A stretch of 64,000 bases of DNA from Methylovulum sp. GTDB lineage: Bacteria > Pseudomonadota > Gammaproteobacteria > Methylococcales > Methylomonadaceae. The notes under the pieces are model-generated. The model did not search any database, was not told where the DNA came from, and was given only the letters and a program-made list of their open reading frames with translations. The stretch is taken from NCBI GenBank assembly GCA_028712695.1, contig JAQTQZ010000016.1:8678-72677 (forward strand). The letters run 5' to 3'. Positions within the stretch are counted from its first letter, which is position 1, and the number at the start of each line of letters is the position of its first letter. Below are positions 1 to 62,481 of the stretch, piece by piece. A program made the position numbers and the translations under genes.

Positions 1-334
1 GAGCTACATGCCTGACGATTTCGTTAAAATACGCAGTGTTTTTGAGTTTAACGGGGTCTTCACTGTCCAGTAAACCTGACGTTTTTTGGCGCTCAACTTG
101 TTGCTGGCTATCACCACGAAAATAAAAGTTAGCCTCATTCAAAGGTACAGAGAGAATACCAGGTGTAATAAATGACCATTCAATACGAACCCCGCCTTTC
201 TCATAGCTGAATTTCAGGGAACGCACAAACTCATCCCAGGATGGTTGCTCTGTGTTATTTGATTGAAATATTGTGTTTTGTGCAGCGATAAGAAATCGAT
301 ATTTAAAACTTTCAAATTTTATTTTTTTAGGCAT
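1..334 (-). CDS. Partial hypothetical protein (runs off window start)
   Basis: Manual translation from ATG at 334: MPKKIKFESFKYRFLIAAQNTIFQSNN... open for 111 codons to the window edge; the start overlaps the radical SAM stop (ATGCCTAA), suggesting coupling. Confidence 0.6.
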   Translation of the reverse strand, partial: MPKKIKFESFKYRFLIAAQNTIFQSNNTEQPSWDEFVRSLKFSYEKGGVRIEWSFITPGILSVPLNEANFYFRGDSQQQVERQKTSGLLDSEDPVKLKNTAYFNEIVRHVA

Positions 335-1529
335 TGATAAGCTCGATTTTTTTGTGAGAAGTTGGTCGGGATGCGGGTCTTTCACGGGACTCATTACGGA
401 TTTTTTCAGCCAGCTCAAGCAATTGTTCGTAAGTTAACGGCCAATTTTTTTCAGGGGGTGAGGTTAAGAAAGTGCCAACTCGTTGCAGTTTTGCAGCCAT
501 AAAACGCATGGAAATGGTCATTTCAGGATAACTGCCGTACATGCAGCCATCGCAGGCGCGCGTTACCTGCGCCACTTCTTCGCGCCAAGCTTTGCTGCGA
601 TAGATTTTGGGAAATTCACTAGCATAGGCAGGATAACTGTTGCTAAGTCGATGATCGCAACACGGGGCGAATTCACCGTTAGGCAAAAGAGCAAAATAAA
701 GATTAGGGGTATCGCAAACGTTGTTGTTATGGCTGCGCCAAGTAATCGGTTCATTACGCACAAAGCGTTTAATGTCATCCAGATACTGATCGCTATCAAA
801 TAGTAAAAAACCCTCTTTACGCATTTGCCGCACACGCTCGACAACACTATCGACAACGGATAATTCATCGGGTCTGAAACGTAAGGAATGGTCAAAGGTA
901 CGAAATCCCCGCGGATGCGCATAATCGCTTACATGCACAGGCACTAGCGAGGTGAACCAAGATATTTCTGTGCCGAAGCGCACGACGTCTTCAATATCGC
1001 CCATGTTCTGGGGTTGCAGGACACAACCTAAGGACGCAAAGCTACCTTCCTTGGGTAAGTGTTTTGAGAACAAAGCCATTGCTTTTAATGCTTGATGCCA
1101 TGATTCGTTGAAAGCGCCATTGATTTTATCTTGTCGTTCAGGTTGTAAAGAATCAAGCGAAATAGATATATCCTTCCCTCCCGCTTCAATAGCCCGCACA
1201 ATTTGTTCTTCTGATGCGTAACCGTTAGTTTGCATACGGACATGCACGCCGCGCGATTCAAAAGCATAAATGATTTCCGGCAGGTCTTTACGGGCGAAAG
1301 GTTCGCCGCCAGTCAGCAAAACGATTGCTACTCCCATAGCTGCGAAATTATCAGCAATTCGTTTTACCTCGTCGATAGTACATTCGCGCACGTCAGAGTT
1401 TGCATAGATGATATTGCATTGCTCACAGGTTAAATTGCATCGTGCGGTGACATAAAACTGCACATAGACAGGTGCATCCTGAAACAACGCTGCCTTTGCT
1501 AAGGTCATTTTCGATAAACTTGAAAACAT
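327..1529 (-). CDS. Radical SAM protein with C-terminal SPASM/twitch-like domain
   Basis: CxxxCxxC (CNLTCEQC), LTGGEP, MQTNG motifs; C-terminal Cys cluster (CDTP...PCC...CDGC). Confidence 0.85.
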   Translation of the reverse strand: MFSSLSKMTLAKAALFQDAPVYVQFYVTARCNLTCEQCNIIYANSDVRECTIDEVKRIADNFAAMGVAIVLLTGGEPFARKDLPEIIYAFESRGVHVRMQTNGYASEEQIVRAIEAGGKDISISLDSLQPERQDKINGAFNESWHQALKAMALFSKHLPKEGSFASLGCVLQPQNMGDIEDVVRFGTEISWFTSLVPVHVSDYAHPRGFRTFDHSLRFRPDELSVVDSVVERVRQMRKEGFLLFDSDQYLDDIKRFVRNEPITWRSHNNNVCDTPNLYFALLPNGEFAPCCDHRLSNSYPAYASEFPKIYRSKAWREEVAQVTRACDGCMYGSYPEMTISMRFMAAKLQRVGTFLTSPPEKNWPLTYEQLLELAEKIRNESRERPASRPTSHKKIELINA

Positions 1530-1530
1530 T

Positions 1531-1920
1531 TTATTTTTTCCTAAAAAATATAGCCCGAATTATATAGTTAATGACAAAAGTCGTACCGTTAGTTAACAAT
1601 TTCGCCAAGTAGGGGTTTAATAAGGCCAATTCAACCAATAGCCATAATAGTACCATCCCAATCCCAAGCATCATGCCATTTACTAAAAATGTAAGTGGTA
1701 AATCCACGCCCAGTTGAAAACGGTTGTTTTTGAATACGAACTTACGGATAAGAACGACATTAACAACTGTCCCTACACAAAACGCGGCAGCATTGGCGAT
1801 GTAAATTGACACCCCTTGTGATACAAGCATTGCGTAAATCAAAAAATCTATGCAAAAGCCACAAGTAACGACTAGGAAGTAACGCAGAGGCGTTTTAAAT
1901 ATTGATAGTTTCCGCAACAA
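1531..1920 (-). CDS. GtrA family (flippase-like) membrane protein
   Basis: About 130 aa, four hydrophobic segments, RYFLVVTCGFCIDF...NFVF...AKLL...NY pattern typical of GtrA; follows a GtrB-like glycosyltransferase; TTG start at 1920 is my estimate. Confidence 0.8.
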   Translation of the reverse strand: MLRKLSIFKTPLRYFLVVTCGFCIDFLIYAMLVSQGVSIYIANAAAFCVGTVVNVVLIRKFVFKNNRFQLGVDLPLTFLVNGMMLGIGMVLLWLLVELALLNPYLAKLLTNGTTFVINYIIRAIFFRKK

Positions 1921-2839
1921 AATAGAGCGGTCTCCCTTTAACTTCTTCGAATATGCGGGCAATGTATTCTCCAACCACGCCAATCAATAATATCTGTACA
2001 CCACTAAAAATTACTATAGATAACAATACCGCAGTTAAACCAGGCACAGGTATATTTGTAAACAGTTTCAAATACAACATGTAACAACCACCTAATATGC
2101 CCGCTAATATTGTTAGGAAACCAAGGCGAATTGCTATAGTCAGGGGTTTTTTTGAAAAAGAAAAGACTGCATTGGTGGCAAATCCTAGCATTTTTCGTAA
2201 GGGGTATTTAGTTTCGCCCGCATAACGTTCTACACGATCATATTCGAGTGGGATAGCACGAAAACCGAGCCAAGGAATCATTCCTCGCACAAATCGATGT
2301 CGTTCAGGCATGCGCTTGAACGCATCGACAACATTACGTGACATGAGACGAAAATCCCCCGTATCAGTGGGAATATCGATTTCGCACAGATAATTTAACA
2401 GACGATAAAAAATTTTGGCCGTTAATTTCTTGAATACTGATTCACCGGCACGGCTACGACGTTTGCCATATACCACGTCAAAACCTGTTAGTGCTAAGAG
2501 GTACATGTCTTCGATTAACTCTGGGGGATCTTGTAAGTCGGCATCAATTACGGCAACATAATGCCCCTTCGCTAAGTCAATTCCTGCCGTAATAGCAATT
2601 TGGTGGCCAAAGTTCCGGCTAAAAGCAATTACCTTGATACTGGTAGTTTGCTCTGCCATGTTTCGCAGTAAAGGCAAAGAGCAATCGCTAGAGCCATCAT
2701 CGATAAATACTAGCTCCACATCCAGGCTAGGTAATAATTTATCGCGCAGAGCAAGAAGACGTTTCACAGTTTCAGTAATTGACTCTTCTTCATTGAATAC
2801 TGGTACAACAATGCTCAGCAGTTTTTTTTCTTGAACCAT
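1895..2839 (-). CDS. Glycosyltransferase family 2 (GtrB/polyprenol-phosphate glycosyltransferase-like)
   Basis: SIVVPVFNEE, IDDGSSD, FSRNFGHQIA, DADLQDPPE, TGDFRLM motifs, two C-terminal TM helices; ATG at 2839 with aggag RBS. Confidence 0.9.
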   Translation of the reverse strand: MVQEKKLLSIVVPVFNEEESITETVKRLLALRDKLLPSLDVELVFIDDGSSDCSLPLLRNMAEQTTSIKVIAFSRNFGHQIAITAGIDLAKGHYVAVIDADLQDPPELIEDMYLLALTGFDVVYGKRRSRAGESVFKKLTAKIFYRLLNYLCEIDIPTDTGDFRLMSRNVVDAFKRMPERHRFVRGMIPWLGFRAIPLEYDRVERYAGETKYPLRKMLGFATNAVFSFSKKPLTIAIRLGFLTILAGILGGCYMLYLKLFTNIPVPGLTAVLLSIVIFSGVQILLIGVVGEYIARIFEEVKGRPLYFVAETINI

Positions 2840-2929
2840 ATGGTATGACTCCTTGATGTTTAAAAGCAGGTTGTGCGTGTTTGCCAATAGCAAAAGCTAT
2901 TAAAAGTTGCTCAATATGGATATATGCGA

Positions 2930-3797
2930 CTATATGATAATTTTGCTATTTAATTTTAAATCCAAAAACTGCGGGTAGTCTCTTATATACCCAATTAACT
3001 TGAAGACACCGTGTTGATATTTTAAAAATCATATATAATTCAATCTATTAATAGCATATCGATACGGTATCTTGAAAGGCGATGGGTATATAATCGGCAG
3101 CCTGGTAAAGCTCAGACGCCAAAACCAGACAAATAGCGCCGCTGGAAAAATTATTCAGCTCCCGCCAAATACCCGGCACTATCTGCAAAGCATAATGCGG
3201 CCTGTTTAAGGAAAAGGTCTTTTTTACCGTGCCATCATCCAGCTCAACGTCAAAGCTACTGGCCTGAAAGCCGTTTTCGTCAACGATCACTATGAAATTC
3301 TTAAGGTTGTGGTGCGCCGCAAAAAGCGCACCCTCGCAAATAGGGCCTTCATTGATTTCGCCATCACCCACCAAGGCGTAGGTTTTTTGACCGGTGCCGC
3401 GTAGCTTTGCCTCTATCGCCATGCCGACGTCGACCGAGAAGCCGTGGCCTAATGATCCAGAAGTCACTTCTAAGCCAGAAACACGCGAATCAGACAAGCC
3501 TTTTAAATCGCTGCCATCAGCGAAATAATTCGAGAACGCCTCATTCTTAAGCCAGCCCAATTCACGCAAACACGCGTATTGAGCCATGATGCCATACCCT
3601 TTGCTGAGTACGAAGTAATCACGCTCTGTGGCAAGCGGGTCGTTATAGGGATAGCGTAAATGATTTCGGTATAAAACAGCCAGGAGCTCGATGATTGAGA
3701 ATGCACATCCGATATGGACGGTTGAGCCTGCATAGGCCATATCCAATACCGTTTTACGCAGTGCTTTGGTATTAAATGCGTGAGGATGTGAAGTCAT
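2930..3797 (-). pseudogene. Chimeric pseudogene: transketolase N-terminal subunit fragment fused to the C-terminal half of an FdtA/WxcM-like cupin, interrupted by a MITE
   Basis: Transketolase-N motifs (HIGCAFS, DYFVLSKG, VTSGSLGHG, GDGEINEG) up to ENGFQA, then 57 aa that are 56/57 identical to the cupin at 7183-7611; degenerate residues (SKGYG for SKGHG, ICE for IWE). Confidence 0.85.
2988..3088. mobile_element. 101-bp MITE, IS630/Tc1-like (TA duplication)
   Basis: Bipartite TIRs TACCCA-N6-TT(G/C)AAGA(C/T)ACCGT at both ends; TA at 2986-2987 and 3089-3090; removing it restores the cupin reading frame ...ADYIRDYPQFLDLKLNSKIII*. Confidence 0.75.
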
Positions 3798-3809
3798 AGC
3801 CGACAATTC

Positions 3810-3977
3810 TCAGAAGTTGATACCGAGATAGCTCTCGATTTTACTGGTCGCAAAATCCAACATCTCCTTGGTCAGAGCTGGCTGCACGCCAATCCAGAAG
3901 GTGTTCTTCATCACATTGTCGGTATTGGTCAAATTGCCGCTGATGCAGTAGCTAGCAATCATTTTTATAGTTTCCAT
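3810..3977 (-). pseudogene. Orphan 3' end of rfbH/ddhC (55-codon remnant)
   Basis: Translates [55 protein letters not shown]; 3850-3944 matches 4918-5012 at 90/95 nt. Confidence 0.85.
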
Positions 3978-4062
3978 AATAAATTCGTTTCTTTTGAAAA
4001 ATTAAAGCTCGATAAGCACAAAACTTGGCGAGGCTTATTGGATCGGCGGCTTTCATGTCGTT

Positions 4063-4476
4063 TTAATCTAGCTGATTCACCACTATCTTCGCAAATTCTG
4101 TGAAGTCTGCTAGGTGGTTTTTTACAATGCTGTGAACAATATGCCAGTTGATGGCATCGTAGTTATGCACGGCAATATTGCGAAAGCCAACGGCTTTTTT
4201 CAGGCTAAGCGCCAGCGCTACAGATAATATCCCTGCTTGTGCAAGTCTATCGAACGTTTGGCCCATTGTATCCGGCGGCGGCACGTCCATACCCGAAATC
4301 AGATGTGCACCAATGTCCACACATAACTGCACGGCTCGACTGAGGTTAAGCGAGACTATGTCTTGTAGATCAAAGTCTGTAATTAACGTATCGGCTTCCG
4401 GAGGGCACTTGGTTTCGATGCGTTGTAAACAGCGACGCAGCGCCTCCAGTTTTTGCTCGACTACTTCCCGATCCAC
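4063..4476 (-). CDS. HepT-like HEPN ribonuclease toxin (DUF86)
   Basis: RX4HXY motif (GFRNIAVHNY), QLCVDIG, 137 aa, overlaps upstream nucleotidyltransferase. Confidence 0.85.
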   Translation of the reverse strand: MDREVVEQKLEALRRCLQRIETKCPPEADTLITDFDLQDIVSLNLSRAVQLCVDIGAHLISGMDVPPPDTMGQTFDRLAQAGILSVALALSLKKAVGFRNIAVHNYDAINWHIVHSIVKNHLADFTEFAKIVVNQLD

Positions 4477-4874
4477 GCCGCCCGCCTTTCTGCTAATACC
4501 CGGTTGCGATACGGCATAAAATCGGCCTGTTCAAACAAATGTCGGCTAATCAACTGCCCATACTCACCATCACTCCCCAGCAGGCGACGACCATGCTGCA
4601 CGATTTGGCCCAATAAAGGCTCGGTTGCCACTTTCAAATCTATCAAGTCAACAGGGCGACCGATTTGCTCTGCCAACGCGGCGATGAGGTCCATTTTCTG
4701 ATCCGCTGTCAGCGCCTGTTTGGCGGCTACCGCAATGTCCAAATCACTGTCTGCGCGTTGCCGTCCCGAGGCGACCGAGCCAAACACCAGCGCCAGCACC
4801 AGTTCAGGAAAGCGCGTCAACACTTCCTGCAGTTGCTTGTCGATATCAGGTGCTGTGGTGTTAACAGTGGTCAT
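4461..4874 (-). CDS. MntA-like minimal nucleotidyltransferase antitoxin
   Basis: GSX10DXD motif (FGSVASGRQRADSDLD), VDLIDL; paired with HEPN gene. Confidence 0.85.
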   Translation of the reverse strand: MTTVNTTAPDIDKQLQEVLTRFPELVLALVFGSVASGRQRADSDLDIAVAAKQALTADQKMDLIAALAEQIGRPVDLIDLKVATEPLLGQIVQHGRRLLGSDGEYGQLISRHLFEQADFMPYRNRVLAERRAAWIGK

Positions 4875-4877
4875 GGC

Positions 4878-6641
4878 TTAAACTTTCACGCCCAGATAGC
4901 TTTCGATTTTCTCTACTGCAAAATCCAACATCTCCTTGGTCAGAGCTGGCTGCACACCAATCCAGAAGGTGTTGTTCATCACATTGTCGGTATTGGCCAG
5001 ATCGCCGCTGATACGGAAGTTGGCCCCGATCATGTAAGGCTGGCGCGTAAGGTTACCGGCAAATAGCAGGCGCGATCCGATTTTGTGTTGATCCAGGTAG
5101 GTCAGCAGCTCCAGCCGTGTGACGGGACTGCTTTCTTTCACGGTGATGGGAAAACCAAACCATGAGGGGTCAGAGTGTTCGGTTGCTTCAGGCAGATGCA
5201 AAAAGGCTTCGCAGCTTTTCAGGCGTTCTTTGAGATAGGCAAAATTGTCTTTGCGAGCCTGGATAAACTGTGGTGCCTTGTCTAGTTGCGCCAGTCCACA
5301 GGCGGCCTGCATGTCAGTGATTTTAAGGTTGTAGCCTAGGTGGCTGTAGGTGTATTTATGGTCGTAACCCTTAGGCAAGTTGCCTAATTTAAAGCAAAAG
5401 CGTTTGCCGCAAGTGTTGTCTTTACCTGGCGCGCAGAAGCAATCACGTCCCCAATCGCGGAAGCTTTCGGCAATTGTTTTAAGCTTTTTGCTGTTTGTAA
5501 ATACTGCGCCGCCTTCACCCATGGTGATGTGGTGCGCCGGATAAAAGCTTAGCGTGCCGATGTCACCAAATGTGCCTACCATCTGGCCGCGATAAGTGGT
5601 GCCTAGTGCATCACAGCAGTCTTCCACTAGCCAAAGGTTGTGTTTTTTACACAAAGCCATGACCACGTCGAGGTTAAAGGCGTTACCCAATGAATGCGCC
5701 AGCATGATGGCTTTGGTCTTAGGGCCAATGGCCGCTTCGATTTTGCTGGCATCGATATTGTGCGTTTTAGGATCTACATCCACAAATACGGGCACTGCAC
5801 CAAACTGGAGTATGGGATTGACGGTGGTTGGAAAACCGGCCGCCACACCGATAACTTCATCGCCCGGCTTGATAGCCCGATCGCCCAGTTTAGGAGATGT
5901 CAGGGTGATAAACGCGACGAGGTTGGCTGAAGAGCCGGAGTTGACAGTAATCAGGTGCTTAACGCCGATGAAAGCCGCGAGCTTTTCCTCAAATTTGGCG
6001 TTGAAGCGGCGGCCTGTAGTGAGCCAGCCGTCGAGGGCTACCAACTTTAGGCGGGACAGTCTGAGGTTAAGCCGTTCGTGGTGAGCTTGTCGAACCATGA
6101 ACGGTTTAACCGTCCACCCTTCGACAAGCTCAGGGCGAACGGTTAAGCCTAGCAACTTGTCCCGCCTAAAGTTGGTAGCCCCGTCGAGCGAGGCTTCGAC
6201 CATATTTTTGATCTCTTCGGCACCGATGACCTTGCCTGAAGGTGGAATAACGCTGGTTCCTGGAACAAAAGCAGTGGAATTAAATTTATGTACCGCAAAG
6301 TTCTCCACGTTAAACGCAGTCGCTTTTCGTAAAACTTCATCCAACTTTGTTGTATTGAGGCTGGCAACTTTCCTGCAAATCTTGCTTTGTACGGTAATTA
6401 CCTTATCAACACGAACTACACTTTCCTGTTTTAGCGCTCCTTCTGCCAGATCAACGGCGGTAATTTTGACAGCAGAGGTGTCGTAGATGTAAGAGTCAAC
6501 TTCAGTGGTGATAAAAGCTACGTTTAAGTCATCAAAAATACTACGCTGATTAATCCCGATTACCAAGCCAGGACGAACCTTGCTGCCTGCCCGGTTAGTA
6601 TAAGGAAAATCCAAGAGAACAACATCACCGAGCCTTAACAT
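4878..6641 (-). CDS. rfbH: Fusion protein: N-terminal PemK/MazF-like toxin domain + CDP-4-keto-6-deoxyglucose 3-dehydrase RfbH/DdhC, with a 51-aa MITE-derived in-frame insertion
   Basis: N-term [24 protein letters not shown]...AFITT...RVDKVITV (PemK-like); RfbH motifs [44 protein letters not shown]; ATG at 6641 with GGAGG RBS. Confidence 0.85.
6036..6180. mobile_element. 145-bp MITE with 23-bp perfect TIRs and 8-bp TSD (IS1595-family-like), carrying an internal REP-like inverted repeat
   Basis: TIR GGCTACCAACTTTAGGCGGGACA at 6036-6058 and its reverse complement at 6158-6180; TSD CCGTCGAG at 6028-6035 and 6181-6188; inner IR 6072-6094/6120-6142 (20/23). Confidence 0.92.
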
Positions 6642-6879
6642 CAAATAACTCCTCCCAGTTAACATCATTATCATCTTCGGTATCAAAAAAACTGCTCAGT
6701 CCAATGGCCTGAAATTCCTGTTCAGAATTAGACGCTCCGGCGTGGAATGATTGGGCCACCCCACTCGCCTGATCATCTTTATCCAGGACGATAACAAATA
6801 ACTCAGCTTCACTTACACCTACTAAGGGAGTCAGCAGATGAATATTGCCTTCTTTATAAACCGCCTTTACAGCTTGCAT
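6625..6879 (-). CDS. Putative antitoxin, DUF104/AF2212-like N-terminus
   Basis: [19 protein letters not shown] resembles the AF2212-like fold start; acidic C-terminus; 3' end overlaps the PemK-RfbH start; aggag RBS. Confidence 0.6.
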
Positions 6880-6926
6880 TGTAGGTCTCCTTTGTTCGTT
6901 TGGTAGTCCGCAATTTGTTTCAAGGC

Positions 6927-7145
6927 TCATAGTTGAATGCCGGTTTGTCGCGCAATCGTCAGCACAGGCGCTTCGGGAGTGGCGCGGTTAGCAATGGTCT
7001 GATCAGTTTCAAATAACAGGTCAATATCGCCACCCTTTTTGGTGTCGTCGGTACGCGAACCAAAAAGGATGACCCGCACGTCTTTGCCCAGCACCGCATC
7101 AGCAGTTTGTTTGATGGCTTGAATTTGTTCTTGGGTTAGGCGCAT
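6927..7145 (-). pseudogene. Minimal nucleotidyltransferase, apparently internally deleted
   Basis: [11 protein letters not shown]...[18 protein letters not shown] motif; only 72 aa, IANRA runs directly into TPEAP; no HEPN partner follows. Confidence 0.6.
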
Positions 7146-7182
7146 GGCGGTGTTTTGATAAGTTTTAGATGGCTTCAATTCG

Positions 7183-7611
7183 TTATTGACTGGCTTTTAA
7201 AGCCAAGAACTGCCGATAATCCCTTATATAATCAGCCGCTTGATAAAGTTCGGAAGCCAGAACCAGGCAAATTGCGCCGCTGGAAAAATTATTCAGCTCC
7301 CGCCAAATACCGGGGACTATCTGCAAAGCATAATGCGGCCTGTTTAATGAGAAGGTTTTTTTTACCGTGCCATCATCCAGCTGAACGTCAAAACTGCCGC
7401 CAGCGGCAACCAAAAACTGTTGTAAGTCGTAATGGGCATGGCCGCCGCGTGATTCGCCGCCCGGCACATCGTAAAGGTAGTAGATCCTTTTTATGTCAAA
7501 CGGAAAATGCTTTTTTCCTTCGACAAAAGTAATGTTGCCCGATTGGTTATGGACTTTCGGAAGTTCAACGATTGCACAATCAAACACGGTGGTTTTGTTA
7601 TTCGGCTTCAT
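7183..7611 (-). CDS. FdtA/QdtA (WxcM-like) cupin, sugar 3,4-ketoisomerase
   Basis: [48 protein letters not shown]. Confidence 0.85.
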
Positions 7612-8017
7612 TGCGGGCTGTTATAAAGTCAGGAAAGGATCTAATGTAATCATCGGCGTCGTAGACGGTTGATGACAAAACCAAGGCAAGGGCGTTGGTC
7701 GAAAAATTCTGCATAGTACGCCAATGTAATTCTGGAACATACAAGCCGTAATACGAGCGGTTTAAAAAAAAAGTCTGTTCCTGTTGCCCATTATGTAAAA
7801 CGACTTCAAAACTGCCTGATAAGGCGATAATAAATTCTTGTTCCGTTCTAAAGGCATGGCTGCCCCTGATTTCCCCGCCTGGAACATCATAAACCCAGTA
7901 GGTGCGTTTTATTGTAAAAGGAATATGCTGTTTTGATTCTACAAAAGATAGGTTGCCTCTGGGGTCAAAAATCTTGGGCAGTTGAATAAGTTGGGGTTGT
8001 GCAGGCTTCTTATCCAT
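7598..8017 (-). CDS. Second FdtA/QdtA (WxcM-like) cupin
   Basis: DPRGNLSFVE, KRTYWVYDVPGGEIRGSHA, FSTNALALVLSS, DYIRSF. Confidence 0.85.
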   Translation of the reverse strand: MDKKPAQPQLIQLPKIFDPRGNLSFVESKQHIPFTIKRTYWVYDVPGGEIRGSHAFRTEQEFIIALSGSFEVVLHNGQQEQTFFLNRSYYGLYVPELHWRTMQNFSTNALALVLSSTVYDADDYIRSFPDFITARNEAE

Positions 8018-9284
8018 GGCATTCCAACGCATAGGTTATTGCCGGTCTGACCACGCCAGGCAATATTGACATATTGTTTTCCATGGGTATGTTTTCAATT
8101 TCAAAGGCGCAGATATGGTCTTGCTTGAATAAAACATAACGCTGGCTTTGGCCAAAAAGCAAATTCATGCTGTACATATTGGCATTTAGCAAATGGGCAG
8201 GGATGATAGCCGTGATTTTATGTTTACCCAGTTTTGAGTTTTGGTCTTTGGCAAAAACAAAGCCGTGATGGAAAACTAACACATCATCTTTACTGACGAT
8301 TTCAAACGTCAGGTCTTCAGTGATGTCTTTTATTTTGTTGAAAAAGTCGATTGTTATTTGTACGCCCGAACTGATGTCCAGTGTTGTGCCGTTTAGCGGG
8401 TTTATTTTTATGCTGTCTACCCGGATATTGTCATTTTCAGCAGCGTTGCCAAATTCCCAGTGGTTGTTTTCATTAGTTGCCAAGGCATTGTTATTTTGGT
8501 AAAAATCAATGGCCTCAGTGATATTTCCTTCAAACCCTTTGCTGCCATTAATGAGCACCATGCCGCTTTTACACAGGCTTTTTACCGCCGCCATATTGTG
8601 GCTAACAAACAGCACAGTGCGGCCGTAGCTTTTAGATACGTCCTGCATTTTGCCGATTGCTTTTTTCTGAAATTCGGCATCACCGACCGCCAGCACTTCA
8701 TCCACCACCAAAATTTCCGGCTCCAAATGTGCGGCGATGGCAAAGCCTAGTCTTACGGTCATGCCACTAGAATAGCGTTTTACGGGCGTGTCGAGGTATT
8801 TTGCCACACCAGAAAAATCAACGATTTCATCAAGTTTGCTGGTGATTTCAGCTTTGCGCATTCCCATAATGGTGCCGTTCATGTAGATATTTTCACGGCC
8901 GGTCATTTCTGGATGAAAGCCGGTGCCCACTTCTAACAGGCTGGCCATCCGTCCTCGCGCCCGAATACGTCCGGTTGATGGTGATGTCACTTGCGACAGT
9001 AGCTTTAATAAGGTGCTTTTGCCAGCGCCATTTTTGCCAATAATCCCTAGCACATCACCGGCCTGAAGTTCCAGGTTAATGTCACGCAAAGCCCAGACAT
9101 GCTCTCCTTTTTGGGCTATCTGTGTGCGGTCATTAACCGTGCCAATTTTAGAATAGGGATCTTCCTTTCTTAATATTTTGGTTTTCCACCAACGGTTAAG
9201 GTCATGGGATAGGGTGCCGGTGCCAACTTCACCGAGACGGTACAGTTTGCTGAGATTTTCTATTTTAATTATGGGTTGCGACAT
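8010..9284 (-). CDS. wzt: Polysaccharide ABC transporter ATP-binding protein with C-terminal carbohydrate-binding extension
   Basis: Walker A GKNGAGKST, YSSGM signature, LVVDEVLAVGD, FVSH; about 170-aa C-terminal extension. Confidence 0.9.
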   Translation of the reverse strand: MSQPIIKIENLSKLYRLGEVGTGTLSHDLNRWWKTKILRKEDPYSKIGTVNDRTQIAQKGEHVWALRDINLELQAGDVLGIIGKNGAGKSTLLKLLSQVTSPSTGRIRARGRMASLLEVGTGFHPEMTGRENIYMNGTIMGMRKAEITSKLDEIVDFSGVAKYLDTPVKRYSSGMTVRLGFAIAAHLEPEILVVDEVLAVGDAEFQKKAIGKMQDVSKSYGRTVLFVSHNMAAVKSLCKSGMVLINGSKGFEGNITEAIDFYQNNNALATNENNHWEFGNAAENDNIRVDSIKINPLNGTTLDISSGVQITIDFFNKIKDITEDLTFEIVSKDDVLVFHHGFVFAKDQNSKLGKHKITAIIPAHLLNANMYSMNLLFGQSQRYVLFKQDHICAFEIENIPMENNMSILPGVVRPAITYALECHG

Positions 9285-9353: not shown

Positions 9354-10196
9354 TTAAACTGTATCAATAAAATTGCGTTCGGTCTGATGAAAAATGATAA
9401 TCCCAAAAAATAGTAAGATCACCATAAAACCACCCGAATAGGCCAGTGCATCCCAGCTAAAGTGCCCGGCACCCAAAAAAGCGTATTTGAAGCCTTCCAG
9501 AATCGGTGTTAACGGATTGGCCTGAATGAAGATCTTGTATTTTTCTGGGATGGTCGAAACAGGGTAAATGACAGGGGTTGCATACATTAATAACTGGATG
9601 CCGAACGTCAGCAAGTGGTTTAAGTCGCGGTATTTAGTCGTTAATGAGCTGAAAATAAGGCCGGCCGCTAGGCCAATTCCGGCCATTAAGACGATATAAA
9701 CAGGCACTAATGCTAATGTCCAGTTGGGTTGTATGATGGTGTTGCCTGAGAAAATAAAATACAGATAGATGATGATAAAAAATGAAAATTGGATAAAAAA
9801 TTTGATTAAGCCAGATGTTATTTCCGCCAAAGGAATAATTAGCCGTGGAAAATAGACTTTGCCAAATATCTGGGCATTAGTGGTGAAGGTGTGCGCGGTT
9901 TGGTTGAAGCTTTCGGAAAAGTAGTTCCAAATGACTATGCCGGATAAGTAAAAAAGTACTTGGGGCAGGCCGTCGGTGGATATTTTGGCTATTTGCCCAA
10001 ACACCAACACATACATGGCAGTGGTCATCAAGGGTTGTACAATAAACCATATGGGGCCAAGTATGGTTTGTTTGTACACAGTGATAATGCTGCGTTTGAT
10101 AAACATGTAAAGCAAATCACGATACAACCAAATTTCTTTAAAGTTTATGTCCAGTAAATGTTTTTTTGGTGTTATATCAATAGTGTAGTTGTTCAT
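9354..10196 (-). CDS. wzm: Polysaccharide ABC transporter permease
   Basis: YKQTILGPIWFIVQPL, KVYFPRL, YRDL, YATPVIYP, NPLTPI; multiple TM helices. Confidence 0.9.
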   Translation of the reverse strand: MNNYTIDITPKKHLLDINFKEIWLYRDLLYMFIKRSIITVYKQTILGPIWFIVQPLMTTAMYVLVFGQIAKISTDGLPQVLFYLSGIVIWNYFSESFNQTAHTFTTNAQIFGKVYFPRLIIPLAEITSGLIKFFIQFSFFIIIYLYFIFSGNTIIQPNWTLALVPVYIVLMAGIGLAAGLIFSSLTTKYRDLNHLLTFGIQLLMYATPVIYPVSTIPEKYKIFIQANPLTPILEGFKYAFLGAGHFSWDALAYSGGFMVILLFFGIIIFHQTERNFIDTV

Positions 10197-62071: not shown

Positions 62072-62481
62072 GCTATCTGCTGGATAGCAATATCCTTTCG
62101 GAACCTGCCCGCTTAAAGCCTAATGACAGGGTATTGCAACGCTTTGCCACTCATGACGGTGATTATGCAACGGCAGCGATAGTCTGGCATGAGCTGGTTT
62201 ATGGGTGTGAATTACTGCCCGCCTCAAAAAGAAAAAAACAACTGCAATCCTATCTGGCGATGTTATTGGCAAACGGCTTGATCGTCTTGCCATTTGATCA
62301 AGCCGCCGCCGACTGGTACGCGAAAGAACGCGCCAGATTGCAACGGGAAGGAAAAACCTGTGCGTATGCGGATGGTGAAATCGCTGCTATTGCTGTGACC
62401 CAACAGCTAATACTCGTTACTCGAAACACTCACGATTTTGAGAATTTTCAGGAGTTAGTGTTACAAAATTGGTTTGAATAA
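62059..62481 (+). CDS. PIN-domain toxin (VapC/FitB-like)
   Basis: YLLDSNILSE, WHELVYG, LPFDQAAA, DGEIAAIA, LVTRNTHDF. Confidence 0.9.
   Translation: MGRISYLLDSNILSEPARLKPNDRVLQRFATHDGDYATAAIVWHELVYGCELLPASKRKKQLQSYLAMLLANGLIVLPFDQAAADWYAKERARLQREGKTCAYADGEIAAIAVTQQLILVTRNTHDFENFQELVLQNWFE

Follow-up and report, generated by a model that had tools for sequence, protein, structure and literature searches.

Phage receptors and antigens are determined chiefly by surface polysaccharide loci, which turn over by recombination, and O-antigen loci are mosaics with gene remnants. Prophage e14 and phage 21 integrate into icd of Escherichia coli, leaving an icdC pseudogene, and the palindromic elements of Rickettsia (RPEs) lie in frame within coding genes. 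Homology-facilitated illegitimate recombination, or the "trapping of foreign DNA", was reportedly described in naturally transformable bacteria in 2002 by de Vries & Wackernagel and by Prudhomme et al. Two further sources (PMC8116780, PMC6382021) also mention this process. Toxin-antitoxin (TA) modules typically survive the decay of mobile elements (PMC12548467, PMC5543033) and are thought to stabilise chromosomal integron arrays (10.1101/2023.11.17.567518). Here we analyse an O-antigen locus of the methane-oxidising bacterium Methylovulum sp. (positions 2930-7611 of the window, that is, of the 64,000-nt stretch of contig JAQTQZ010000016.1 under study) in which an MntA-HepT pair stands between rfbH and an orphan copy of the rfbH 3' end, all within a larger block flanked by a second duplicated tail, that of FdtA. 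The genome of the window (labelled G000; 3.79 Mb, 99.98% complete) was compared with the genomes and loci of relatives, which bear the other G and L labels. From the anatomy, the homologues, the allele-like divergence of the orphan tails and the microhomologies, we give about an even chance to a patchwork built by successive events, each with a homologous anchor in a conserved sugar gene and an illegitimate other end, TA addiction retaining the trapped DNA.

A toxin-antitoxin pair between two rfbH ends

Every gene in window positions 1-13 kb lies on the minus strand, and the genes, fragments and tails located below are all on that strand unless marked otherwise. Read 5' to 3', the order is wzm, wzt, FdtA1, FdtA2, an MNT-type open reading frame (ORF), an 84-aa ORF, a PemK::RfbH fusion, MntA and HepT, followed by a 97-nt trailer, an orphan rfbH tail, a truncated tktN (tktN'), an orphan FdtA tail and a block of GT2, GtrA and radical-SAM genes. 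Families were assigned with Pfam and NCBIfam profiles, the NCBIfam cut-offs being 423 bits for RfbH and 60 bits for MntA and HepT. The gene for MntA, the type VII antitoxin/adenylyltransferase (4461..4874; NF047752, 92.7 bits), starts after a spacing of 3 nt from the rfbH stop and overlaps by 16 nt the gene for HepT, the HEPN RNase toxin (4063..4476; NF047751, 142.8 bits; Pfam HepT-like, E 2.9e-27). MntA carries the motif GSX10DXD (G32-S33...D44-L-D46) and HepT the motif Rx4H (R99-N-I-A-V-H104), and by these motifs, the gene order, the overlap and the NCBIfam equivalog scores the two are predicted to be a bona fide type VII pair.

HepT is followed by a conserved 97-nt cassette trailer (3966..4062), with homologues 3' of the cassette in L037, G200, G004, G024, L130, L158-L160 and L163, and then by 51 codons of an orphan rfbH 3' tail (3810..3965) that ends canonically in ..GINF* and retains its native tktN junction. 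A consensus scan for promoters and terminators in the trailer and orphan tail gave nothing above shuffled sequences. The orphan corresponds to repeat D2 (3823-3944 versus 4891-5012 at 90%, BLAST E 4e-39; about 122-153 nt at 80-91%), and a second repeat, D1, pairs 3087-3257 with the 3' part of FdtA2 at 7225-7395 (171 nt, 90% identity, BLAST E 3e-60). Both repeats are far beyond chance. The two duplicated gene tails noted originally are confirmed, one being of FdtA and one of rfbH.

The succession of rfbH, MntA-HepT, the same trailer and an orphan rfbH tail is also present in G004, in the Methylobacter metagenome-assembled genome (MAG) L037 and in metagenome contigs L155-L164; the inner scar is old and common to at least three other lineages. 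Its cargo is MntA-HepT alone, or MntA-HepT with one or two extra NT-HEPN pairs. The orphan rfbH tails have a common derived 5' junction (K-T/M-I-A-N/S-Y/C-C, e.g. in L037 and G004) and the canonical C-terminus ..GINF* or ..GINC*; the working copies end in ..VKV* or ..IKT*, and then comes the GCC ATG of MntA. The altered ..VKV* end moves together with the cassette, the working rfbH tail and the cassette acting as a unit. An empty site is found in L018 and G024, where tktN stands directly 3' of rfbH, and a cassette copy at another site in G024 retains the first ~15 nt of the orphan junction. Other cargo has also come to lie at rfbH, namely NT-HEPN with an orphan tail in L017 and in the Sideroxydans MAG L034, and an MBL-fold hydrolase with an orphan tail, then tktN, in the Chlorobiaceae MAG L026.

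In G200 (L129 = G200:C127, about 5644-5910 in cassette orientation), rfbH is down to an 88-codon scrap and MntA-HepT and the trailer are intact. The 88-codon ORF, directly 5' of MntA-HepT, joins the start of the antitoxin to ~20 codons of PemK and the final 15 codons of rfbH, and such a scrap beside an intact pair suggests that the TA outlasts its neighbours. Small palindromic elements are scattered through these cassettes: L015 (G024) has a perfect 17-nt hairpin element just inside the 5' region of MntA (3616-3656) and a 230-nt inverted-repeat element between the HEPN gene and the cassette trailer (5408-5636).

The centres of both window rfbH tails share states seen in no other sequence (TKEMLDF), which indicates gene conversion between them, and rfbH identity to L017 falls from ~89% to ~82% near nt 800, which points to a crossover within the presumed rfbH anchor. 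The orphan tail of L017 is of another rfbH lineage (VYPGL type) than the working gene that adjoins it, and in L034 the working and orphan tails have in common a C-terminus unique to that genome. Two tails that recombine as direct repeats could also, as a concrete form of the exchange first proposed, release [gene-tail + TA] units as circles, which would re-enter wherever a gene end is homologous, through one Campbell-type crossover and with no dedicated recombinase. Such a cycle would account for the TKEMLDF centres, for a trailer-orphan junction that is conserved and moves with the cassette (as the ~15 nt in G024), and for cargo varying within the same tail pair, and it predicts the same foreign-allele divergence of tails that is described below. 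We nonetheless think it unlikely: no circle junction or polymorphic site was seen in the assembled sequences, each new target gene (there are five) would need a fresh illegitimate capture, homology alone being insufficient for spread, and the outer event at FdtA has mid-gene breakpoints with microhomology.

Across five genes, the ratio of non-synonymous to synonymous divergence (pN/pS) between working and orphan tails is 0.02-0.26. FdtA2 and the orphan FdtA tail differ by 16 synonymous changes and 1 non-synonymous change (pS 0.41, pN 0.008), and the corresponding counts are 16 and 5 for a regulator (pN/pS 0.09), 19 and 8 for gmd (0.12), 5 and 2 for a tolC-like gene (0.14) and 5 and 4 for GT2-GtrA (0.26), where a local duplicate with one neutral copy would be expected to give ~0.55, about half of its divergence being neutral. 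Divergence so dominated by synonymous changes suggests that the orphans were recently part of working genes of another lineage, or were refreshed by conversion, and in-situ duplication is disfavoured by these ratios. One form of it would be a one-time error of replication or repair, by template switching or by overlapping illegitimate ends, that copies the cassette into a gene end and duplicates 90-240 nt of the target, only products keeping both neighbours surviving. This is quite unlikely in our estimation, given that it would not be expected to yield synonymous-dominated divergence at five genes or an orphan from another rfbH lineage as in L017, although the genome-unique C-terminus common to both tails of L034 speaks for it, survivorship would explain why duplications are seen rather than deletions, and the outer block can be written as three template switches (FdtA2 end to NT to rfbG end, and onward) with microhomology at the joints. 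For FdtA and L017 there are already hints that working and orphan tails have different nearest relatives, which speaks against this form. The microhomologies are of 4 nt each, CCTT where HEPN(+12) meets rfbG(-55) and GCCA where tktN codon 182 meets FdtA codon ~70. Taken with the allele-like divergence and the crossover signal in rfbH, they fit one-sided homologous plus illegitimate recombination better than local duplication.

Between the tails, inserts consist of TA genes only, or of one MBL or Uma2 gene. No recombinase-like ORF or IntI was found among the ORFs of window 1-13 kb, no attC-like fold among the single-stranded DNA folds of four cassette trailers (z = 0.12, 0.25, -1.04 and -0.56), and no repeated boundary motif in the NT/HEPN array of G022, whose repeats are coding paralogues only. 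Integron-like cassettes were ruled out on these three grounds, and the expectation that no integron integrase was at work stands. The cassettes could instead be what is left of integrase-borne islands or of prophages that had entered gene 3' ends with a surrogate end, their TA having survived the decay. The topology is the same (an intact gene with a surrogate end, an insert and a displaced original end) and TA modules are typical survivors of decayed mobile elements, but no integrase or island gene lies between the repeats in any of at least 10 loci, whose inserts are only 0.8-2.2 kb. Moreover, repeat boundaries vary between events, with no short identical att-like core seen at them, and the start of the cassette is tied to the stop codon before it, which leaves this origin very improbable.

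Toxin-type domains number 15 in the whole genome (2 HepT, 1 PemK, 10 PIN and 2 ParE/RelE). Two of the 15 fall within the 4.7 kb against 0.019 expected (Poisson P(>=2) ~2e-4, in a post hoc test), a toxin density in window 2930-7611 of ~100 times the genome background, as had been anticipated. A PIN-domain toxin gene also stands at the far end of the window (62074-62445, plus strand; G000:C79:70751-71122).

The PemK::RfbH fusion and its CDP-sugar block

The gene preceding MntA (4878..6641) encodes 587 aa, including 51 aa from an inserted element, MITE1. Its PemK domain (about aa 1-115; Pfam PF02452, PemK_toxin, 37 bits versus a cut-off of 23.1) is the sole PemK match in the genome and gave no match at E<=1 against solved-structure sequences; its RfbH part matches Pfam DegT and the NCBIfam RfbH equivalog (717 bits, matched in two stretches). 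A protein search with the N-terminal 140 residues gave at least 60 homologous fusion clusters of ~535 aa with PemK and DegT, labelled RfbH by NCBI, and among scanned genomes the fusion occurs in Methylococcaceae, Thiotrichaceae, Chlorobiaceae, Gallionellaceae, Burkholderiales and others. Invariably 5' of PemK::RfbH is the 84-aa antitoxin-like ORF (6625..6879; conserved in G004, L017-L022, L037 and L038), which has an acidic tail, overlaps the PemK start by 17 nt and matches no family in Pfam, NCBIfam or PADLOC. The PemK module had been taken for a swapped cassette; antitoxin-PemK::RfbH is instead an ancient conserved fusion, to judge by its at least 60 protein clusters in several phyla. For annotation, the 535-aa "RfbH" proteins of many Proteobacteria and Chlorobiaceae are to be read as bearing an N-terminal PemK domain.

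Two PemK domain types occur on RfbH, one of them marked by GxIYKxPFPF, and they are swapped at the domain boundary. The two types look unrelated (~40% nt identity), with the same enzyme core joined at about codon 150 (L013, L014, L017-L044), and in G024 a type-A antitoxin and the first 22 type-A PemK codons are kept as an orphan "head" 5' of a type-B fusion.

The intact cluster, as in L018, comprises wzm, rfbF, rfbG, antitoxin, PemK::rfbH, tktN, tktC, epimerase, GtrA and GT2, and in close relatives of the upstream block (L152-L154; wzm 91%, wzt 90% and FdtA2 90-92% aa identity) FdtA2 is followed by rfbF, rfbG and further genes. The place of rfbF and rfbG is taken in the window by a 219-nt NT gene, to which 12 nt of its HEPN partner and the final ~55 nt of rfbG are joined in that order. 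The NT gene (NT83', 6927..7145; weak Pfam NTP_transf_2 match, no NCBIfam match) is a degenerate, lone MNT-type nucleotidyltransferase in which GSX..DID is present, 81 nt are deleted in frame relative to relatives and the HEPN partner is absent; it is 86-89% identical at nucleotide level to the NT gene 3' of HepT in G004 and G024. The junction scrap of HEPN start and rfbG end (6867..6930) was recognised by aligning it with G024 (L015 4879-4890) and with the ends of rfbG in L018 and G004. Of the three co-oriented TA modules originally predicted, all the elements are present, on the minus strand and tightly spaced, but NT83' is a lone degenerate fragment and PemK is a domain of RfbH and no separate gene.

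Orthologues of rfbF and rfbG were not found in the 99.98% complete window genome, where the best tblastn matches were paralogues at 20-35% identity. The transketolase N-terminal subunit gene tktN' (3263..3806; Pfam Transketolase_N positions 7-186 of 334) is cut at codon ~182, shares 80-83% aa identity, as far as residue 182-198, with the full-length genes of L018 and G024, and reads on in frame into the orphan FdtA tail, which runs from codon ~70 to its own stop (2930..3262; Pfam FdtA positions 50-120 of 131 in the fused ORF). Because rfbF and rfbG are absent and tktN is cut, the block 3263-7145 is a relic; lacking rfbF, rfbG and a whole tktN/tktC, its CDP-sugar genes would be unable to work here. 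In place of the diversifying antigen locus that had been proposed there is a mostly non-functional remnant, and the rfbH/tktN block of this genome should be treated as such and not as evidence of a CDP-dideoxyhexose pathway. The CDP block is under erosion in more than one lineage: at 4028-5124 of L152, the rfbF 3' of FdtA2 is shortened to 77 aa, and an ORF of 288 aa with no annotation comes after it. Relaxed selection on the window rfbH was not seen, its pN/pS of 0.10-0.11 being like that of its orthologues, and as the inverted repeats of MITE1 are moreover perfect, the relic is young.

Two miniature inverted-repeat transposable elements (MITEs) are present, as predicted, one in rfbH and one in the orphan FdtA tail. 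MITE1 (6036-6180; 6028..6188 with its target duplications) has 145 nt, perfect 23/24-nt terminal inverted repeats (TIRs) and an 8-bp target-site duplication (TSD), CCGTCGAG. With the duplication it amounts to 153 nt, which keeps the frame of rfbH and adds 51 residues without a stop; the orthologous rfbH site is free of it in G004, L017 and L018. The window genome has one full copy, and G001, G004, G005 and G024 have dozens. MITE2 (about 2990-3086; 2984..3092 with TATATA duplications; inverted repeat I1) splits the orphan FdtA tail, which resumes beyond it, and has a weaker TIR and a 6-bp TSD; at least 5 copies at 85-90% identity are found in the relative G010 and none besides this one in the window genome. 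Both have the marks of MITEs, namely TIRs, a target-site duplication, no ORF and multiple copies in relatives. That they are single-copy here and multi-copy in other species of the genus, together with a shift in GC content (48-54% in the block versus 39-45% in its flanks), indicates a foreign origin of segments. An origin of the FdtA and CDP genes from two separate cluster types was dropped, since L152-L154 carry FdtA2-rfbF in one cluster. Without MITE1, the window RfbH reads WLTTGRRFN where all relatives have WLTTGRFN, the extra Arg codon lying six codons from the insertion site.

Upstream of the block are wzm, the ABC-2 permease gene of the O-antigen exporter (9354..10196; 91% aa identity in L152/L153, with a Pfam ABC2_membrane match there), which belongs to a conserved upstream block, wzt for its ABC ATPase (8010..9284; NCBIfam Wzt/RfbE-type and TagH-type matches; 90% aa in L152-L154), FdtA1 for a WxcM-like sugar 3,4-ketoisomerase (7598..8032; Pfam PF05523, E 1.6e-48) and FdtA2, the full-length working copy (7183..7611; Pfam PF05523, E 1.4e-50). 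Downstream lies a conserved block identified by Pfam and NCBIfam (327..2861), made up of GT2 (a polyisoprenyl-phosphate glycosyltransferase), a GtrA-like gene and a radical-SAM gene, which is colinear with L235-L239 at 75% nt identity from window 2861 downward. In many metagenomes (L235-L239; GT2 ~83% aa), four genes, for GT2, GtrA, the radical-SAM enzyme and a methyltransferase, make up a conserved module, and the sugar genes upstream of this module vary between loci.

Recurrence at sugar-gene ends and a proposed mechanism

In metagenomes, 80 loci had a HepT at least 74% identical, 37 of them with at least 3 kb of flank, and a small query panel for sugar genes recognised sugar-nucleotide or polysaccharide genes in 25 of these 37; among further loci of the family, 9 of 14 adjoin sugar genes. 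The proposed link between surface-antigen loci and TA carriage holds, as an association, far beyond this genome. Cassette junctions were seen at rfbH/tktN, rfbG/rfbH, rfbG/rmlC-like and gmd/fcl and 5' of rfbF, and the start of MntA lies 0-14 nt past the upstream stop in many independent contexts. The clade has the layout of whole gene, cassette and orphan tail also at GT2-GtrA (L137, L143), a tolC-like gene (L197, L181), a small regulator (L208) and gmd (L174), and for annotation, short ORFs 3' of HepT in these operons should be taken as orphan gene tails and not as genes. In metagenome contigs L219 and L228, MntA-HepT stands between gmd and fcl with no orphan tail and the HepT stop ~20 nt before the fcl start, which makes tail duplication frequent, not obligatory.

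In G022, a duplication of the rfbF head brackets a Uma2 gene. This locus (L016, G022:C71, 1-14000) is a CDP-sugar cluster (rfbF, rfbG and others) amid an array of at least 8 NT/HEPN-type pairs, with a second, partly deleted MntA-HepT copy and the two rfbF heads at 2956-3162 and 4011-4221 around the Uma2-family gene.

A self-BLAST of the window genome returned 74 direct-repeat pairs 0.3-12 kb apart, mostly paralogues, Rhs tips, REP/RAYT repeats and tRNA-flanked islands, among which only a cysD head duplication resembled the pattern of tail, insert and tail; the pattern is not genome-wide in this organism. That duplication, outside the window (G000:C60:2084-4155), is a 216-nt repeat (84%) of a cysD-like 5' part that flanks a 351-aa ORF, with no TA. 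It belongs to the case for nothing systematic, that is, for an ordinary decaying O-antigen locus with selfish TA genes and scraps from unrelated accidents, a case to which the generally mosaic, remnant-rich nature of O-antigen loci and the loss of function of the block also belong. We nevertheless hold it to be decidedly improbable, since one and the same layout recurs with this HepT clade at five target genes, sugar operons house 25 of the 37 well-flanked loci and the stop-start coupling of the cassette is tight in many contexts.

In the reading that we prefer, of successive anchored events, each would be anchored at one end by homology within a conserved sugar gene and joined illegitimately at the other, that is, by homology-facilitated illegitimate recombination or a very similar process. 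In the inner event, a promoterless MntA-HepT cassette would have arrived joined to a foreign rfbH 3' end; a crossover inside rfbH and a joint of the cassette's far end 51 codons before the resident stop would have left rfbH whole, its last codons changed to ..VKV* and the MntA start 3 nt on, and displaced the resident rfbH 3' end, still attached to tktN, to a downstream position as an orphan. The inner event would be old and common to other Methylococcaceae, the two tails still exchanging sequence by gene conversion. In a recent outer event, a 4-kb block running from the NT fragment and the final 55 nt of rfbG through antitoxin-PemK::RfbH and MntA-HepT to the orphan tail and the tktN cut at codon 182 would have been set between the complete FdtA2 and the tail of another FdtA allele that had once been functional. 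That block probably persists through putative addiction, loss of MntA-HepT (perhaps of antitoxin-PemK too) being toxic. What we infer here from the observed structure is which way the DNA was transferred, how it was taken up and what part addiction plays.

The original prediction of [TA + gene-end] units swapped through homologous termini is borne out as to a recombination and TA hotspot and to a tail and cassette that form a unit (..VKV*), but one homologous plus one illegitimate junction fits the data better than a reciprocal exchange through homology at both termini. Similarly, TA genes do lie exactly at gene ends and duplicated ends do mark breakpoints, but some breakpoints are mid-gene (tktN codon 182 with FdtA codon ~70, and HEPN +12 with rfbG 55 nt before its stop).

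Several points weigh against successive anchored events. FdtA directly before a GT2 block was not found, the nearest GT2 blocks having other upstream genes, which makes the outer "empty site" hypothetical. Orphans cluster in length at 90-240 nt, where random joints would spread wider unless there were selection or trimming. In three lineages the orphan rfbH tails have a derived 5' junction in common, and yet the pN/pS between them is 0.21, which would need repeated gene conversion or some constraint. Finally, a cassette start 0-14 nt from the upstream stop in many contexts is tidier than random joining predicts. The narrow orphan lengths, low pN/pS and tidy stop-start coupling together suggest constraint or a more regular process than random joining.

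We raise, tentatively and with the doubt prevailing, a specialised clade: promoterless MntA-HepT adapted to the 3' ends of sugar-nucleotide and O-antigen genes, spreading without a recombinase of its own, with the conserved upstream-gene end carried along as its homology arm, stop-start-coupled expression and addiction that blocks clean allelic replacement. Were this true, carriage of toxins and defence would be tied mechanistically to surface-polysaccharide variation, with orphan tails as the footprint. TA cassettes that ride conserved sugar-gene ends and veto clean replacement would shape the surviving recombinants, would explain the gene scraps in such loci and would physically link abortive-infection-type toxins to receptor variation.

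Comparison with known systems

A literature search found nothing relevant on TA in O-antigen clusters, on PemK-RfbH fusions or on HepT/MntA in polysaccharide clusters, and the recurrent tie of one HepT/MntA clade to sugar-gene ends and orphan tails appears to be undescribed in the searchable literature. Like known type VII HepT/MntA systems, the present pair consists of two overlapping genes, antitoxin first, with Rx4H and GSX10DXD. It differs in having no promoter-sized leader, as it begins 3 nt past a sugar-gene stop, and in that its clade is found mostly within sugar-nucleotide or polysaccharide operons, often followed by the orphan tail of the upstream gene.

Antitoxin-PemK::RfbH resembles MazEF/PemIK in its PemK_toxin domain and in the small ORF that overlaps the start of that domain. 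Here, however, the toxin is not free-standing (~110 aa) but in frame with RfbH, in at least 60 clusters of Proteobacteria and Chlorobiaceae, and the upstream 84-aa ORF matches no known antitoxin family. Likewise, MITE1 adds 51 in-frame residues without a stop as RPEs do in Rickettsia, but it is a single recent insertion in a host gene that is probably already useless here.

As regards mobile cassettes and islands, the units share with integron cassettes a compact, promoterless, co-oriented build, a position at gene boundaries and the frequent presence of TA, and differ from them in their boundaries, which are gene tails, with neither attC-like hairpins (fold z-scores ~0) nor IntI. As with e14 and phage 21 at icd, an intact gene has a surrogate 3' end brought by the element, its original end is found displaced on the far side of the insert and the repeats are imperfect and ~150 nt long; unlike there, many genes are targeted, the inserts measure 0.8-4 kb, and integrase, att core and phage genes are absent. 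With homology-facilitated illegitimate recombination, the locus has in common one homologous anchor, one junction at 3-10 nt of microhomology and foreign DNA beside the anchor. It departs from that process in that the illegitimate joint falls inside the anchor's own homologue, that the end of the target is duplicated and not deleted, and that the cargo is a putatively addictive TA pair.

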